Source: Deltaproteobacteria bacterium (GTDB taxonomy: Bacteria > Desulfobacterota > Dissulfuribacteria > Dissulfuribacterales > UBA3076). Taken from it: a DNA stretch of 64,000 bases. The position numbers were made by a program, and so were the translations under genes. The stretch covers positions 2,994-66,993 of the forward strand of contig PQXE01000004.1 in the NCBI GenBank assembly GCA_003194495.1, read 5' to 3'. The notes below the pieces were generated by a model. That model worked only from the letters and a program-made list of their open reading frames with translations, was not told where the DNA came from and made no database searches. The first letter of the stretch is position 1; each line of letters begins with the position of its first letter. Below, in pieces: positions 1 to 44,502 of the stretch.

Positions 1-447
1 CGGGAGAATCTCGATTTCAATGCGATACCGAAGGCAGGTTTCGCGAACAGCAGCTATTTTTTTTATGTTCGGCTCTCTTTTTGATGAGGATAGGCTTACA
101 TCTTCGCTGGATCTCCTCATTTCCCGAATTTGGCGATTAACCTTCTCGACCACTGCAGGCGACAGTTCGACATCAACCTCTAAGCTGAAACGGCGGCTTT
201 CTTCCTTGAGCAGTCCCTTGATGCCGTCAGCACCGAAAGTAAAAGATTCAAGAGGTTTTCCACGATAGGGAGGCTCAAAGGCTTCTTTCAGGGTCTTGCA
301 AACGCCGAGCTTGGAAAGTAACTGCAAGGCATCCAGAAAATTGCTCTTGCCAGCGGCGTTCGGACCAAAAAGCACGGAAAGTTGATTTAATTCCACTTCT
401 ACATTCTGCAGTGACTTATATCCTGCGACTCGTATGCGTTTCAGCAT
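1..447 (-). CDS. AAA-type ATPase (RecF/OLD/ABC-like N-terminus), 5' part only; the gene runs off the left edge
   Basis: Manual reverse translation from ATG at 447-445 gives MLKRIRVAGYKSLQNVEVELNQLSVLFGPNAAGKSNFLDALQLL... and stays open to position 1. The Walker A motif is GPNAAGKS. It is absent from the ORF track because no stop lies inside the window. A GAGGGGAAG SD-like run sits upstream. Confidence 0.8.
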   Translation of the reverse strand, partial: MLKRIRVAGYKSLQNVEVELNQLSVLFGPNAAGKSNFLDALQLLSKLGVCKTLKEAFEPPYRGKPLESFTFGADGIKGLLKEESRRFSLEVDVELSPAVVEKVNRQIREMRRSSEDVSLSSSKREPNIKKIAAVRETCLRYRIEIEILP

Positions 448-513
448 AATCTTCCCCTCAGTTATTTGTTTTTCGGGTCAGTACTGGTATATTGCTTCCT
501 CAGTCTGGACTTA

Positions 514-551
514 TTATCATAATTGATAACAAATTATCTAAAGTAAGATAA
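514..551. promoter_or_regulatory. Operator-like cluster of TTATC/GATAA inverted repeats between the helicase stop and the ATPase start
   Basis: The sequence TTATCataattGATAAcaaaTTATCtaaagtaaGATAA lies in the 160-nt gap upstream of the ATPase ATG. Confidence 0.3.
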
Positions 552-608
552 TCCGGGGTTAAGGGTTTGGGTTTGAGGCCTAGTCCCACCAAGCCAAACA
601 CCCCTTTT

Positions 609-3600
609 TTATTCCACCATCTGCCCCGACAAGATTTTCTCCGCCCCCAAATGATAATGTTCAACCTTAACCACCGGTTTCCAGCCTAATCGTGCCGGAT
701 TCTGGATCACGTGCAATTCTGGTTCGGTAGCGCAATTGAATACTACATAAAGCCAGTAATCCTTCTTGAGCCGTTCCGCAGTCTTATACTCATTAGTTGT
801 AAGCGCCACTTCCCCGACATGAGAACGCCCCTTCACTTCGATAAACCGGACCTCTATCGCCGTATCGGGATCTTCCGGGTGGGGTCGCCGAGAGATCAGG
901 TCGAAGCCGCGGTTCTCCTCTTCCACGCTCTGTACTTTCCAGCCACGAGACTCTTCATGCCTGATGACTGCTTCAACGGCGATCTTTTCGATTTCCGGAT
1001 CACGAACCATCTTCCTGACATCAGGAGTCTCACGATCCGGATGTGGCAGGACCCATGCGCTTCCAAGATGCTGGATGTTGCTGATCATGCACTGCTGCTC
1101 TTTTTCCAACTCACTCCGGCGCTGTTCCAGACGGTTGTTCAACTCGTCGAGTCTGTCTTCCAGCATCTTGATCCGGCCGTCCAGTCCCGACTCCTGCGAG
1201 CCGGATTCCTTTTGATTCAAGAGTCCGCCTAACTGGATCTGTGCCCGGTCGATAATGGCGTTCAGGCTGATCTCCATGTGCTCGGAAATTGTCTTAACTT
1301 CTCTTCCGCGCTGGACACGTTCCTCTTCAAGAATCGGCATAAGCGCCTGTTGGTAGAGCACTGTTTCGGCATGATCCTTTCCTGGAAAATCGATATTGTC
1401 AGGCACTTCCGTGCCCTTGGGGGCAAGGGAGAGATCAAGAAAGATGGTAGGCTGACGGACTGTAATGGTTCCGTCCCGGTTGGTCTGCGTTACGAACAGG
1501 CGCTTATGAAGAATATGTCCGCGACCGTCCCGGACCTCTCCGGAGAAAACGTTGAGCAGGGCGGGTGCAGACCGGTGTAAATCATAGAAAACAGCTCCCC
1601 GCTGCAGGTCCTCCTGGACCTTGTCCTGTACCATGGCTCGCACACTCTCGAATAGCGGATGCCCGGGTGTGACCCATTCCAGAGTCGGATCGACTGTGAG
1701 CAGATCCTTGTCGAACACGATTTGTTTGTACTCGCGGCCAAGTTTGCCGAACCTTGGTTCGAGCTGTTCACCATAAGGCATGAGAATTCGCGGCAAGCGC
1801 CCTATCCGGTAGACATGCTCCTGCTTTCGGTCCTGTCTCGGTGAGACGCCGGCCAACGGCGAGGCATGGACAAAGAAGTCCTCGATCACCTCGGGTACAA
1901 GCCTTCGTTCCTTGGCCTCCTCGGACTTGCCAACAATCGCGGATAGATTCAATTCACGCTTGGCCAGTCCCTCAAGGGTAGATTCGGTGATACGCTTCAA
2001 TCGTTCGGTATCCACTTGCTCGACTATACGGTCCTTAATCACTGCCTCAGTGAGGTTTCGGGCGTACATCTCGCGCAACATACGCTCAAGTTGGTTAGCC
2101 GGAAAGATGTCGCCCAGCACGTTAAACACCTTGCCCGTGCGATTTGGGTCCAGGTCAATTTCGATCTGGCTGATACGCTCGAAAAGCTTTTCCAGCACAC
2201 GTCCTTCCCGGGTGTTTGTGCTGACAAAGTTGCTTATCAGGCAATCCTTCTCCTGACCATAACGGTGGATTCGTCCCATGCGCTGTTCAAGGCGATTAGG
2301 ATTCCAGGGGATGTCGTAGTTGATCATATACCAACAAAATTGCAGGTTGATGCCCTCTCCGGCAGCCTCTGTAGCGACCAGTACCTGGCAGTCCTCCTTA
2401 AATTCCCGCTCGGCGTAGATTCGGGTTCCGGGGGCATCTCTGTCTCCGATCTTCATGCTGCCGTGGATTTTAGTGACGTTCAGGCCCCACTCTCGAAGCT
2501 TACCCAGGGGGCGGCCGTCCCTCCCGTCTCCGGCCAGATAATCCAGGGTGTCCTTATGCTCCGTGAAGATCAGGAGCTTCATCTTCTCGTCCTGAAAAAC
2601 GCCGCCTTCGGTGATCACCTCCCTGAGCTTGTTCAACTTGGTTTCGATTTCTCGCTCTTCCAGCAAACGAGCCTGATCCGCCAACTTCCCCAGCTCGATA
2701 ATTTCCTCCCGCAAATCTTCGGGATCGATAGAGGCGACTACGTCCTCCAGGCTGGCCAGAATCTCCTGTTGTTCCTCATCAGGCAGTTCGTCGAAATCGT
2801 CCGGGACCTTCTTAAGGATTTGCTCCTGGCGGTATGCCTCAGGGTCTTCAAGGATCTTTTCGCGCTTGGCCTTCATCCGCTTCAGTGTGCGGCGGACCGC
2901 ATAAATACTGGATGCAAAACGACGTTGAAGCATGGCCATGGTAAAACCAAGAGCACGACCCCTTGCTGAATCATCCTGAGAGGCTTTGATAGACTGGTCT
3001 TCCACGTAACGGGTCAGATTGTCATAAAAGTCGAGTTCATCATCATCGATCTGGAAACCGACTGTATGGACATTCCTTTTCGTGAACAGGCTCTTGGCTT
3101 TGCCCGTATCCGGGTCTGGAAAGGTCACCAGGGCTTCTTTTACACGACGTAAATAAAATGGGGCTGCCCGTTCCTTCATCGCCCGTTCCAGGCTCTTGAT
3201 GTCTCCATAGACATCTCGATCCAACAACCTGAGAAAGAGACTGAAGTTCTTTGGATCGCCCTTGTGAGGCGTGGCGGTCATAAGGAGATAGTGATCGGTC
3301 ATCTCTGACAACGATTCGCCTAGCTGGTATGCCAGGGTCTTCTTATCTTCGGCATAGGCACTCATTTTATGTGCCTCGTCTACGATGATCAGGTCCCAAC
3401 GGCTGCGCAAGAGACTTTCTTTTGCATCCTCGATGCGCGAAACCCAGGAAACGGAGGTAATGCACTGGTCGATGTCCTGCCAAGGATTCGCGCCATAGGT
3501 GGCCCGCAAAATATCGCTGCGAATGACCTGGAACGTCTCCCGGAACTTATCTTTGAGCTCCCGTTGCCATTGGAAGGAGAGGTTGGCAGGTGTCACTATC

Positions 3601-4058
3601 AGAATGCGCTGAATCAGTCCGCGAACCTTTAGTTCTGTGATGAGCAGACCCGCCATGATGGTCTTGCCGGCACCTGGGTCATCCGCCAGCAGGAAACGGA
3701 TTCGCGGCAGACGCAGGAAGTAATCGTAGACCGCTTCAAGCTGGTGTGGCAGTGGGTCAACGCGAGCAATCGAAAGACTAAAATAGGGATCATATTCATA
3801 GGCTAAACTGAGCCGGATCGCCTCGACGCATAGACGGAACTTAGCAGCATCGCCGTCGAAAGGTTCTCTTTCGGGGGATATTTCCAGTTCCGCGATTTGT
3901 TCCGCAGTGAGGACCGGTTGGTGTACTTTGCCCGAATGCATCCCCTCGCCGATAAGTTTGATGGAATCCCCCATCTGAACCAATGAAATAATCTTCACCG
4001 GCTCAGGAAGAAGAGGACCTGTGACGATGTGGTTTGGCTTAAGTTCGATCGGTTGCAT
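609..4058 (-). CDS. SNF2-family helicase fused to a C-terminal PD-(D/E)xK nuclease-like (DUF3883-like) domain
   Basis: Helicase motifs seen: LLADDPGAGKT (I), IIVDEAHKM (II), ATEAAGEGINLQ (V), RLEQRMGRIHRYGQ (VI). The C-terminus reads GFDLISRR...IEVRFIEVKGRSH...YWLYVVFNC, which fits a D...ExK nuclease core. The start is moved to the MQPIELK Met (4058); the ORF track start is 4136. Confidence 0.85.
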   Translation of the reverse strand: MQPIELKPNHIVTGPLLPEPVKIISLVQMGDSIKLIGEGMHSGKVHQPVLTAEQIAELEISPEREPFDGDAAKFRLCVEAIRLSLAYEYDPYFSLSIARVDPLPHQLEAVYDYFLRLPRIRFLLADDPGAGKTIMAGLLITELKVRGLIQRILIVTPANLSFQWQRELKDKFRETFQVIRSDILRATYGANPWQDIDQCITSVSWVSRIEDAKESLLRSRWDLIIVDEAHKMSAYAEDKKTLAYQLGESLSEMTDHYLLMTATPHKGDPKNFSLFLRLLDRDVYGDIKSLERAMKERAAPFYLRRVKEALVTFPDPDTGKAKSLFTKRNVHTVGFQIDDDELDFYDNLTRYVEDQSIKASQDDSARGRALGFTMAMLQRRFASSIYAVRRTLKRMKAKREKILEDPEAYRQEQILKKVPDDFDELPDEEQQEILASLEDVVASIDPEDLREEIIELGKLADQARLLEEREIETKLNKLREVITEGGVFQDEKMKLLIFTEHKDTLDYLAGDGRDGRPLGKLREWGLNVTKIHGSMKIGDRDAPGTRIYAEREFKEDCQVLVATEAAGEGINLQFCWYMINYDIPWNPNRLEQRMGRIHRYGQEKDCLISNFVSTNTREGRVLEKLFERISQIEIDLDPNRTGKVFNVLGDIFPANQLERMLREMYARNLTEAVIKDRIVEQVDTERLKRITESTLEGLAKRELNLSAIVGKSEEAKERRLVPEVIEDFFVHASPLAGVSPRQDRKQEHVYRIGRLPRILMPYGEQLEPRFGKLGREYKQIVFDKDLLTVDPTLEWVTPGHPLFESVRAMVQDKVQEDLQRGAVFYDLHRSAPALLNVFSGEVRDGRGHILHKRLFVTQTNRDGTITVRQPTIFLDLSLAPKGTEVPDNIDFPGKDHAETVLYQQALMPILEEERVQRGREVKTISEHMEISLNAIIDRAQIQLGGLLNQKESGSQESGLDGRIKMLEDRLDELNNRLEQRRSELEKEQQCMISNIQHLGSAWVLPHPDRETPDVRKMVRDPEIEKIAVEAVIRHEESRGWKVQSVEEENRGFDLISRRPHPEDPDTAIEVRFIEVKGRSHVGEVALTTNEYKTAERLKKDYWLYVVFNCATEPELHVIQNPARLGWKPVVKVEHYHLGAEKILSGQMVE

Positions 4059-4389
4059 AGCATTTCCTATTACCAGCAATTTCGATAGAAACGTTTTTTC
4101 CGCAATCCCCACTGACAGCGGGCAATATCGACGCATTTAAAGTGACTGCTGTTGCTTCATGGATATGTTTGCAACGCTTTGGCCTTACAGCTCCCCATCT
4201 GTTTGTCGGCAGAAAGCTTCGGAAAAACAAGAACAAACTCATTTCTATCATATGAAACTATATGCCCGATTTCAAGCAGTTATTCCTGGTATTATAGACT
4301 CAAACGGGATGGCCTGGCTACTAACACCACGTCGCTTGCCTGGGAGACTGGGTGTTGACAATCATGGATTCCGGTATTTATTTATTGGA

Positions 4390-41748: not shown

Positions 41749-42327
41749 TTACCTCACTTCTCCCAGACCGCAACTATTACAGCAGTCTTTAGTCCCTTTG
41801 CCCTGCCCCTGCTCTTGTCGAACCATATAGGAAAGGCACCTTGCCTCTCCCTCTACAAAAAATGGTCTTTTCTTAAATTCATCCAATTTGATTTCCCAGA
41901 TCTTCTCCCGACACTTCATGTATACGTCAAAGGCGAGGAGAATACAATAGTCGATCCTTGACTCCAATTCCAACAGGTCTTCAAAAAATCCATCTGTATC
42001 TATATCTTTTTTCGTCTCATCCCTGATAATTTTCTTAAGCAGAAGAACAACAGCAACAGCCCCTGAAGGCGGAAAATCCTGAACCGCCCGGATTCTGACT
42101 ATCTTGTCGAGAAGAGAAAACATATTCTTCTGATTATTTCCGTTAAGAAGCTCATCAAATAGAGGCCCCACTGCTTCAGAAATATCGGCACCTACGGGAT
42201 TGGCAAACTTATTCCTTTGGTGCCTGAAAAACTCTACGGTTTCAGAAGGATAAGATTCATAGATACTATTAATCCACTTATCTACAATAAGATCCTTTTT
42301 TTTTGCCAGGAGTTTGTCTAAATTCAT
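41749..42327 (-). CDS. DsrT-like / RsbRD-N-terminal-domain protein with a Cys-rich tail
   Basis: LIVDKWINSIYESYP...FANPVG resembles the RsbRD_N family found upstream of dsrMK in sulfate reducers. The C-terminus is CLSYM...DCCNSCG. Confidence 0.55.
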   Translation of the reverse strand: MNLDKLLAKKKDLIVDKWINSIYESYPSETVEFFRHQRNKFANPVGADISEAVGPLFDELLNGNNQKNMFSLLDKIVRIRAVQDFPPSGAVAVVLLLKKIIRDETKKDIDTDGFFEDLLELESRIDYCILLAFDVYMKCREKIWEIKLDEFKKRPFFVEGEARCLSYMVRQEQGQGKGTKDCCNSCGLGEVR

Positions 42328-42604
42328 GTTCGCACTATTCTTTAAGGACTTCAGACATAAATTATTTTTTGCCCTGCCGGCAGGATATTAACATTTATCC
42401 ATTAATCCTGCGACAAGGACCGGCTTTTATTACTTTTTTTTCTTTTAAATCATTCAGAACTTCCCATAATTTTCTGAATGACAATTCATAATGAACATCT
42501 CTTTATACAAAATGTGATTCCATGTCAAGACCAACTATGGATGAAACTGGATTTGAATACAAAATTATGTTATTTCGTCTGCCTAAACGGTATCAAAAAA
42601 TGTG

Positions 42605-42758
42605 CCCGTTCACGGGATTACAATGCCCGTTTACCGCACCCACCGAACTGTAAGCGTTTACAGGGTGCTGCAGATGCGAGGCGGAGGATACGCAGACGTA
42701 CTTCCTGTACTTCAAGTGCCCGACAACAAAGCAGATGCGGTGCCATGTAAACGCTTAC
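42605..42758 (+). repeat. Leader motif plus a single 109-nt long-hairpin unit (forward orientation)
   Basis: gcccgttcacgggattacaatgcccgtttaccgca..., then the unit 42650-42758, closed by a perfect 13-bp stem GTAAGCGTTTACA / TGTAAACGCTTAC. It ends 10 nt before the 42769 ATG. Confidence 0.85.
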
Positions 42759-42768
42759 CAGGAAATAA

Positions 42769-44502
42769 ATGAAAATATTACTCATATATCCATACTGCCT
42801 TGAAGACAGACTCCAGGATTACGATGTAAGAGTCATGCCCATAGGCGCTTATTATATAGGCGCTGTGCTAAAAGCAAATCACTATGATGTCGAAATTGTG
42901 AATTGGCACAATATTAATAAAACGCCGGAAAGAATCAAGGAAATTCTGAAAGAAAAAAAGCCGGATATCATTGGTTTTTCCATCTTGCACGCGAACCGCT
43001 GGGGCGGCATAGAGGTCGCCCAAATCGCCAAGCAGCTCAATCCAAAAGTCAAGACCGTGTTTGGCGGGGTTGGAGCCACCTTTCTGTGGAGACATTTCCT
43101 GACCCATTTCCCGGAAATAGACTTCATCGTTATGAGAGAAGGGGAGTACACTTTTTTAAATCTGGTAAAATGTATTGAAAAAGCGGATTATGAACATGTT
43201 GAAGACATTAAGGGAATCTGTTTCAGGAAAAAAGGCAAGATACTACGGACTGAAGATGCCACATTTATTCAAGATATTGATGAGCTGCCAAATCCGGCAA
43301 AATATTTCAAATATCAGCATGTAATCTCGTCTCGAGGCTGTCCATGGAATTGTACGTTTTGCGGATCACCCCGATTCTGGAGACGTAAAGTCAGATTTCA
43401 TTCTCCGGAATACTTTGTAGAGCAACTGGAATTACTCTACAAAAAAGGAGTGAATTTTTTTTATGTCTCAGATGATACCTTTACGCTCAAAGGGGACCGG
43501 GTGATTGAGATATGCAAAAAAATCCTGGAAAGGAACCTTAATATCACATGGTTTGCTATCTCGCGAGTGAACTGTGTGAATGAAGAAATATTATATTGGA
43601 TGAGGAAGGTCGGCTGCATTCAAATCAGCTACGGCGTGGAAAGTGGTTCTGAAAAGATCAGGAATTGCCTGAATAAAAATATTAAGGCCCATGATATTAA
43701 AAAGGCCTTTGAGCTGACTACTAAATACGGGATCCTTGCACGGGCCTATTTCATCTATGGCTCCCATGGAGAAAGCTGGGCAACCATTCAAAAGACAATA
43801 GATCTGATGCATAGAATCAAACCAATGAGTACTGTTTTTTATATCCTTGACCTGTTTCCAGGCACAGCGCTTTACTCGGATTTTAAGAAAAAATTTAAGA
43901 TCTCGGACAATATATGGCTGCAGCAAATAGAAGATATCATGTATTTTGAAACTGATCCACGTCTGTCCAGGGATACGATATTGGCCTTCGGCGAAAAACT
44001 GAGGAGCGAATACTATGGAAATCTTCACCATTATGTTGATTCCATTGAACTTATAGATAAAAAAGATCTCTACGAACTGCATTCAGGTTTTTGCTCAAGA
44101 CTGGGGATGACTTTCAGCCACGGGGACTACGCAAAGATCGACGCGGTCAGGGAAAAAGATAAAACCGCTGAAAAGCTGTTCAAAAGGGCATTGGGTTATT
44201 ACCCTGACCATCGTGCTTATCTGGGATTGGGCATCATCAAACAAAAAAACAGGGCCTTTGATGAATCTATCAGGATTTTATCAGAAGGCATTAAATGTTT
44301 TCCTGGCAGTGAGCCGTTGAATACGTGCCTGGGAATCAGCTATATGAACTTAGGGCAATTCAGCAAGGCGCTTTCATGCCTTCTGAAATTCCCGGACTCA
44401 AGAGAAACTGTTCCCTATATTGCAAGCTGTTACAAGGCATTGGGTGATTCTGAAAAAGAATCCGCCTTTCTTGAAAAACTCCGTAATATTGAGTTACTGT
44501 AG
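42769..44502 (+). CDS. B12-binding-domain radical SAM enzyme with a C-terminal TPR region
   Basis: N-terminal cobalamin-binding-like fold (MKILLIYPY...IGFSI), an SSRGCPWNCTFCGSP cluster, and C-terminal TPR units. Confidence 0.75.
   Translation: MKILLIYPYCLEDRLQDYDVRVMPIGAYYIGAVLKANHYDVEIVNWHNINKTPERIKEILKEKKPDIIGFSILHANRWGGIEVAQIAKQLNPKVKTVFGGVGATFLWRHFLTHFPEIDFIVMREGEYTFLNLVKCIEKADYEHVEDIKGICFRKKGKILRTEDATFIQDIDELPNPAKYFKYQHVISSRGCPWNCTFCGSPRFWRRKVRFHSPEYFVEQLELLYKKGVNFFYVSDDTFTLKGDRVIEICKKILERNLNITWFAISRVNCVNEEILYWMRKVGCIQISYGVESGSEKIRNCLNKNIKAHDIKKAFELTTKYGILARAYFIYGSHGESWATIQKTIDLMHRIKPMSTVFYILDLFPGTALYSDFKKKFKISDNIWLQQIEDIMYFETDPRLSRDTILAFGEKLRSEYYGNLHHYVDSIELIDKKDLYELHSGFCSRLGMTFSHGDYAKIDAVREKDKTAEKLFKRALGYYPDHRAYLGLGIIKQKNRAFDESIRILSEGIKCFPGSEPLNTCLGISYMNLGQFSKALSCLLKFPDSRETVPYIASCYKALGDSEKESAFLEKLRNIELL

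Follow-up and report, generated by a model that had tools for sequence, protein, structure and literature searches.

The window analysed here, a 64,000-nt stretch of contig PQXE01000004.1 from an uncultured Deltaproteobacteria metagenome-assembled genome (MAG), very probably holds at its left edge an Hma operon, also called a Type-1 BREX-related (BR) system, with a self-contained HEC-01 defence cassette nested between the genes hmaA and hmaB. The locus is assigned to Hma because its helicase matches HmaA over the full length, a DUF1156 methyltransferase of the HmaB type follows downstream, and the gene order is collinear in relatives. Hma was defined by the helicase HmaA, the methylase HmaB and the ATPase HmaC and occurs in 26 phyla (Payne et al., 2021, PMC8565338); a 2026 study in Nucleic Acids Research renamed it as the Type-1 DUF499-centred BR systems (PMC12839542). 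Embedded genes were reported in 62.7% of Hma systems, and the commonest unidentified cargo was named "Hma-embedded candidates", of which HEC-01 consists of an ATP-binding cassette (ABC) ATPase and a TOPRIM-like protein (Payne et al., 2024, bioRxiv 10.1101/2024.01.29.577857). A second survey put the share of hma loci with insertions at about 66% (Liu et al., 2024, PMC11232893).

The arrangement is thus an already known one, two named and nested systems with nothing new in system type, and it changes little for the field: a standard Hma operon with HEC-01 at the known hmaA-hmaB insertion hotspot in an uncultured Deltaproteobacteria MAG. Its practical value lies in annotation, as NCBI calls the first protein just "helicase" and the two nested systems deserve separate calls. 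An initial annotation made from the sequence had recognised an accessory, defence-like cluster next to housekeeping genes, which agrees with the present result, the helicase-nuclease fusion being the effector of Hma. It had also held that no named system could be assigned; the locus can, however, be placed in Hma/Type-1 BR with an embedded HEC-01.

The helicase-nuclease HmaA

The hmaA gene occupies positions 609..4058 of the minus strand. Its open reading frame (ORF) extends from 609 to 4136 and yields 1175 aa when counted from the first ATG, yet the likelier start is the codon for M27, an ATG at 4058, because an AGGAA ribosome-binding site lies 5 nt upstream of it and the homologues are 1146–1150 aa long. 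The resulting protein of 1149 aa is identical to NCBI PXF59651.1, which is encoded on a 119-kb contig and titled "MAG: helicase [Deltaproteobacteria bacterium]". In the following, HmaA residues are numbered from M27, and motif conservation refers to an alignment of 78 homologues. The PADLOC profile HmaA PDLC00659 matches with an E-value of 8.5e-199 (661 bits), aligning residues 31–1134 with profile positions 6–1132 of 1176. Pfam resolves three parts, namely the SNF2 N-terminal lobe (3174..3692, minus strand; SNF2-rel_dom 3.5e-15, ResIII 6.5e-13), the Helicase_C lobe (2256..2639, minus strand; 2.5e-21) and a NOV_C domain, formerly DUF3883, of the PD-(D/E)xK nuclease clan (residues 1049–1144, 705..992, minus strand; 2.6e-20).

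Motifs I, II, V and VI of a SNF2 motor are readable in this protein of roughly 1150 aa, as had been noted initially. The N-terminal lobe holds motif I (LADDPGAGKT), motif II (IVDEAHK) and motif III (MTATPH), the Helicase_C lobe motif V (ATEAAGEGINLQ) and motif VI (QRMGRIHRYGQ), and all five are near or fully invariant among the homologues (0.92–1.00). The C-terminal nuclease core, first seen as GFDL...IEVKG, reads RGFD(1053)L ... FIE(1074)VK(1076)GR ... E(1090), and D1053, E1074, K1076 and E1090 are 100% conserved.

A homologue with experimental data is HmaA of Halomonas meridiana, which has the same Pfam architecture of SNF2-rel_dom, Helicase_C and NOV_C (PMC11232893). This protein alone lowers the propagation of phage T4 in E. 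coli. Its defence activity requires motif VI, being abolished by the R610A exchange; D1084, E1104, K1106 and E1121 are needed for nicking and defence, and with Mn2+ the C-terminal domain on its own nicks supercoiled plasmid (Liu et al., 2024, PMC11232893). By collinear position T136 and R610 of the H. meridiana protein correspond to T133 and R596–R599 here, and the four nuclease residues to D1053, E1074, K1076 and E1090. The likeness to Hma thus comprises the full-length match, a SNF2 motor joined to a nuclease that is predicted to be active, and the methyltransferase gene downstream on the same strand; a difference of substance is not found.

AlphaFold2 modelling of HmaA yielded a mean predicted local distance difference test score (pLDDT) of 55 and a predicted template modelling score (pTM) of 0.33, with a 37-sequence alignment (75–91% identity) that was too shallow. 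The only confident parts are residues 1–60 and 730–810, the former modelled as a small beta-rich domain, which would be compatible with the published assignment of a Tudor domain.

Could the SNF2 protein instead be a RapA/HepA-like factor for the recycling of RNA polymerase in a housekeeping locus? Among solved structures RapA comes nearest to the HmaA motor by sequence (E 3.5e-39), in line with the published relation of the BR helicase to BrxHII and RapA (PMC12839542), and the right-hand neighbours (a SIS-domain gene, hemC and cobA-hemD) are housekeeping genes. The probability of such a function is nevertheless practically negligible, given that the NCBIfam RapA profile scores 197 bits, far from its cut-off of 576, that the match to HmaA is full-length, that the intact C-terminal nuclease is absent from RapA, and that the gene forms an operon with a methyltransferase gene and is patchily distributed over phyla, archaea included. 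The reservation made at the outset, that the helicase might cluster with RapA/HepA-type transcription factors lacking nuclease residues, therefore falls away: the motor is RapA-like by sequence, yet the nuclease residues are kept.

The helicases of two other defence systems were considered as well, as strong secondary PADLOC matches point to DrmD of DISARM (1.3e-131) and to BrxHII of BREX type 3, and BR has been linked in evolution with BREX type 3 (PMC12839542). It is extremely improbable that the locus is a fragment of either system with DrmD or BrxHII as its helicase, since DrmD reaches 376 bits in NCBIfam against a cut-off of 610, HmaA is ahead by about 220 bits, and the neighbouring methyltransferase is of the DUF1156/HmaB type. 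Moreover, neither DrmA/B/C nor PglZ nor BrxA/B/C is found in the leftward extension described below or in the relatives. An assignment to DpdE is likewise excluded on curated cut-offs.

The embedded ATPase and DUF4276 genes

The second gene on the same strand encodes an ATPase and begins at 447 behind a GAGGGG ribosome-binding site; 149 codons lie inside the window before the gene is cut off at base 1 (1..447, minus strand), much as the initial annotation had it. Already this N-terminal fragment with the Walker A motif GPNAAGKS is matched by PADLOC HEC-01A (2.3e-23) and Pfam AAA_15 (3.3e-10). Extending the contig leftwards, as had been proposed, was achieved with a Logan contig of 8770 bp (L001) that was retrieved by exact-protein look-up. 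This contig is 100% identical to the window across 6067 bases and adds 2703 bp, revealing the rest of the ATPase gene, a further small gene and the N-terminal part of hmaB, so that the order on the minus strand of the window reads hmaA, ABC ATPase HEC-01A, DUF4276 protein HEC-01B, hmaB. The contig ends inside hmaB after 417 aa (L001:7520-8770), which match PADLOC HmaB with 3.4e-56 and DUF1156 with 5.9e-23, and so stops short of the C-terminal 60% of hmaB and of any hmaC. A homology search with this HmaB N-terminus did not find the full-length HmaB of the same genome, the best match with full coverage being 74% identical.

The complete ATPase comprises 440 aa and is matched by PADLOC HEC-01A (7.8e-59) and Pfam AAA_21 (5.7e-29). 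Its motifs are a Walker A G28PNAAGKS, the signature LSEG317, the Walker B EEPE343 and the H-loop THS376. Judged by the LSEG signature, the EEPE Walker B and the THS H-loop, it is an ABC/OLD-type (AAA_15/AAA_21) and not an AAA+ protein; of the original label "AAA ATPase" the second word stands and the class does not. The solved structures nearest to it by sequence are those of a class 1 OLD nuclease (6p74, E 2.7e-08), AriA and PtuA. The ATPase gene is followed, with an overlap of 8 nt, by a gene for a 195-aa DUF4276 protein, HEC-01B (L001:6936-7523), which scores 37.3 bits for DUF4276 against a gathering cut-off of 30.2 and 9.3e-07 for PADLOC HEC-01B, and which is putatively TOPRIM-like. An ABC ATPase followed by a small TOPRIM-like DUF4276 partner, embedded between hma genes, is also what makes the pair resemble the published HEC-01.

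Several other identities were considered for the ATPase. A housekeeping paralogue of the RecF/RecN/SbcC kind, which had been raised initially as a possible objection, does not fit the scores, as recF gives 32–35 bits against 172 and recN 17–20 bits against 408, and the score for SMC proteins is likewise far below its cut-off; an SMC assignment is excluded on curated cut-offs. The best NCBIfam match is MAD3 of the MADS system (1.5e-46), yet its 159.4 bits stand against a cut-off of 420 and the remaining MADS genes are all absent. The Gabija protein GajA was rejected on curated cut-offs or neighbours. OLD-type ABC fold signatures are shared with PARIS (AriA and AriB) and OLD/Gabija. In PARIS the ATPase and the TOPRIM-like nuclease are likewise split over two genes, but AriB is a DUF4435 protein whereas the partner here belongs to DUF4276; a match to AriB or DUF4435 was not obtained, and the AriA profile matches only partially (1.5e-30, residues 280–383). 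In OLD and GajA, by contrast, ATPase and nuclease are fused, whereas here they are separate genes.

The cassette lies between the hmaA stop codon and the hmaB start codon on L001, and its two borders differ in kind. At the 5' edge an AT-rich spacer of 161 bp separates it from hmaA (448..608, minus strand; GC 39.8% versus 51–53% in the flanking genes), containing a GATTATC..GATAAT inverted repeat and weak sigma-70-like hexamers with 9/12 matches to -35/-10. A separate promoter for the ATPase, as initially described, is weakly suggested by the AT-rich spacer and these hexamers; the spacer holds no terminator. At the 3' edge HEC-01B and hmaB share an ATGA in which the stop codon of the former overlaps the start codon of the latter (L001:7520-7523), and this junction is equally tight in two related loci, L031 and L051. 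Neither direct repeats nor a recombinase were seen flanking the cassette, integrases having been sought via the ORF list. The exchange of cargo may run by recombination between the conserved 3' end of hmaA and the conserved 5' end of hmaB.

Neighbourhoods of related hma loci

Is the ATPase a constant companion of the helicase? A scan with one genome per species returned 498 HmaA relatives, of which the best 80, 69–89% identical to the HmaA of the window, were examined; HmaB and HmaC were mapped in these loci by tblastn, and the gap between hmaA and hmaB was measured in the 74 loci with hmaB. The loci come from Desulfobacterota, anammox Planctomycetota, KSB1, Chloroflexota, Acidobacteriota, cyanobacteria and methanogenic or methanotrophic archaea, a patchy spread across phyla. 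Of the 80 loci, 74 have hmaB downstream of hmaA on the same strand. Among the 52 that offer 9 kb or more of downstream DNA, 51 show the order hmaA-hmaB-hmaC collinear on one strand, a further likeness to Hma. HmaC, a DUF499 ATPase, is recognised by PADLOC with 1e-122 to 1e-130 in L002, L031 and L051.

The gap between hmaA and hmaB is bimodal, measuring at most 50 bp in 28/74 loci and more than 300 bp in 46/74. The latter share of 62% agrees with the published 62.7% and 66.5%, so that the survey arrives on its own data at the embedding frequency of about 62% known from the literature. The ORFs in the long gaps constitute a heterogeneous defence or toxin-antitoxin cargo with 12 AAA_21/AAA_15 ATPases, 7 DarT, 6 HD, 3 DprA-like and 3 Schlafen/AlbA_2 proteins as well as Mrr, HEPN/nucleotidyltransferase and Macro proteins. 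Only three of the 80 loci (L031, L051 and L054) have the cassette of the window between hmaA and hmaB, with an ATPase that is 67–73% and a DUF4276 protein that is 51–64% identical, and any related ABC ATPase follows hmaA in 12/74 loci. In the closest HmaA relatives, L002, L004 and L005 (86–89% identical), hmaB directly abuts hmaA; other close relatives, L003 and L007, bear different cargo. Cargo turnover is thus faster than that of the hma backbone.

These data bear on the initial proposal of a helicase-nuclease/ATPase pair, read as one dedicated two-gene module in which the ATPase would sense for or regulate the helicase-nuclease. The two genes do share a strand, with 161 bp and no terminator between them, and no kind of cargo is met next to hmaA more often than ABC ATPases (12 of the 46 cargo-bearing loci). 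Such a module is all the same very unlikely. An orthologous ATPase in 3/80 relatives, together with bare or otherwise filled gaps in the closest ones, means that the ATPase is not the conserved partner of HmaA; the objection foreseen at the outset, a lack of conserved adjacency in other genomes, thus applies. In all cases the ATPase has its own DUF4276 partner behind it, HEC-01 pairs are also known from outside hma loci, and HmaA alone protects in E. coli. The conserved partners of HmaA are HmaB and HmaC, and that of the ATPase is the DUF4276 protein, with which it forms an exchangeable unit nested in the hma operon. The H. meridiana hma operon likewise holds inserted defence genes, with Septu in its hmaA-hmaB gap and an AAA_21 pair in its hmaB-hmaC gap, compared to the AAA_21/DUF4276 pair in the hmaA-hmaB gap here.

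Some findings speak against the reading as an Hma operon with a HEC-01 defence cassette and have to be weighed. The hmaC gene of this genome, and thus the completeness of the system, is expected from the gene order in relatives, and one surveyed locus, L009, is an orphan hmaA that departs from collinearity. In published surveys hmaB adjoins about 85% and hmaC about 81% of hmaA genes, and with T4 no protective methylation by HmaB could be detected (PMC11232893). As to the cassette, the profile matches of HEC-01B are modest, with E-values of about 1e-6 to 1e-9, a sequence search of solved structures gave no match for the DUF4276 protein, and a HEC-01 representative did not protect E. coli against any phage tried (bioRxiv 10.1101/2024.01.29.577857).

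Three side observations concern these loci. For a defence protein HmaA shows unusual conservation, with 69–91% identity across Desulfobacterota, Planctomycetota, cyanobacteria and Methanoperedens/Methanosarcinales archaea, while the neighbouring HmaB N-terminus drops to 38–86%. In L054 two cargo modules are stacked between hmaA and hmaB (L054:11982-14203), the HEC-01 pair being preceded by an extra module of a 405-aa protein, with weak PADLOC matches to SIR2/prokaryotic Argonaute-associated proteins, and a 335-aa ORF. Furthermore, a family of proteins of about 195 aa is encoded directly 5' of hmaC, in a hmaB-hmaC gap of about 600 bp, in 24 of 59 related loci, for example at L033:16428-17015, L043:16563-17150, L051:9971-10555 and L003:11824-12402. 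Its invariant elements D78, E98-L-E100-N, K114, FCYR and FPxGFF give it a PD-(D/E)xK-like look, and searches of Pfam, NCBIfam, PHROGs and the sequences of the PDB yielded no match for it. This family may represent an undescribed accessory gene or a fourth component of this Hma clade. In the closest relative the hmaB-hmaC position holds instead a GGACT/AIG2-like protein of the gamma-glutamyl cyclotransferase fold (L002:6770-7339; AIG2_2 3e-16).

Possible mode of action

How could the two nested systems act? In the Hma part, HmaB would mark self DNA by N6-adenine methylation, as suggested by what is known of the family, and HmaC, a DUF499 STAND-like ATPase, would scan for or sense invading DNA and assemble or direct the restriction complex. 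HmaA would translocate on DNA by means of its SNF2 motor and nick or cut with the C-terminal PD-(D/E)xK domain; this activity, shown for the homologue only, is transferred to the present protein because of the full-length match and the collinear and invariant key residues. By analogy HEC-01 probably acts like PARIS or OLD, with the ABC ATPase sensing a phage cue and licensing its TOPRIM-like partner as a nuclease, and it may back up Hma when Hma is inhibited.

The last point leads to the question whether the cassette is integrated into Hma or merely housed by it. OLD-ABC/TOPRIM modules embedded in BR loci have been proposed as backup effectors (PMC12839542), and the pair in the window could be such an integrated effector of Hma, set off by an inhibition of Hma through anti-restriction proteins of phages, much as PARIS senses Ocr. 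The ATGA overlap of HEC-01B with hmaB in L001 and the equally tight junctions in L031 and L051 imply co-transcription and translational coupling and thus argue for co-expression. On the other hand, the cargo at this site is highly diverse and exchanged between close hmaA relatives, a rapid turnover that argues for modular independence, and HEC-01, known from over 100 genomes, is like Septu mostly found outside hma loci (bioRxiv 10.1101/2024.01.29.577857). An integrated backup effector is therefore conceivable, though on balance unlikely. The more elaborate form of the idea appears rather doubtful, namely that the cassette is wired into Hma, being co-transcribed and translationally coupled to hmaB, and serves as a backup of the decoy-sensing kind, set off once HmaABC is blocked by anti-restriction proteins of a phage.

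Flanking region

To the right of hmaA the window carries divergent housekeeping genes between 4159 and 8818, and there is no defence island on that side. They encode a SIS-domain protein (GmhA-like), a 317-aa protein without a Pfam match, a Zn-ribbon protein, hemC and a fused cobA-hemD. Two candidate promoter-like sites 5' of hmaA, TAGCCA-18-TATAAT and TTGAAA-17-TATGAT (4247..4320, minus strand), each agree with the consensus at 10 of 12 positions and fall into the divergent intergenic region common to hmaA and the SIS-domain gene. Scans for tRNAs and Rfam families returned nothing near the locus, the only tRNAs lying at 47.6 and 49.6 kb. The stretch of lowest GC content in the window is found at 42001–44000, with 40.3% compared to about 47% elsewhere.

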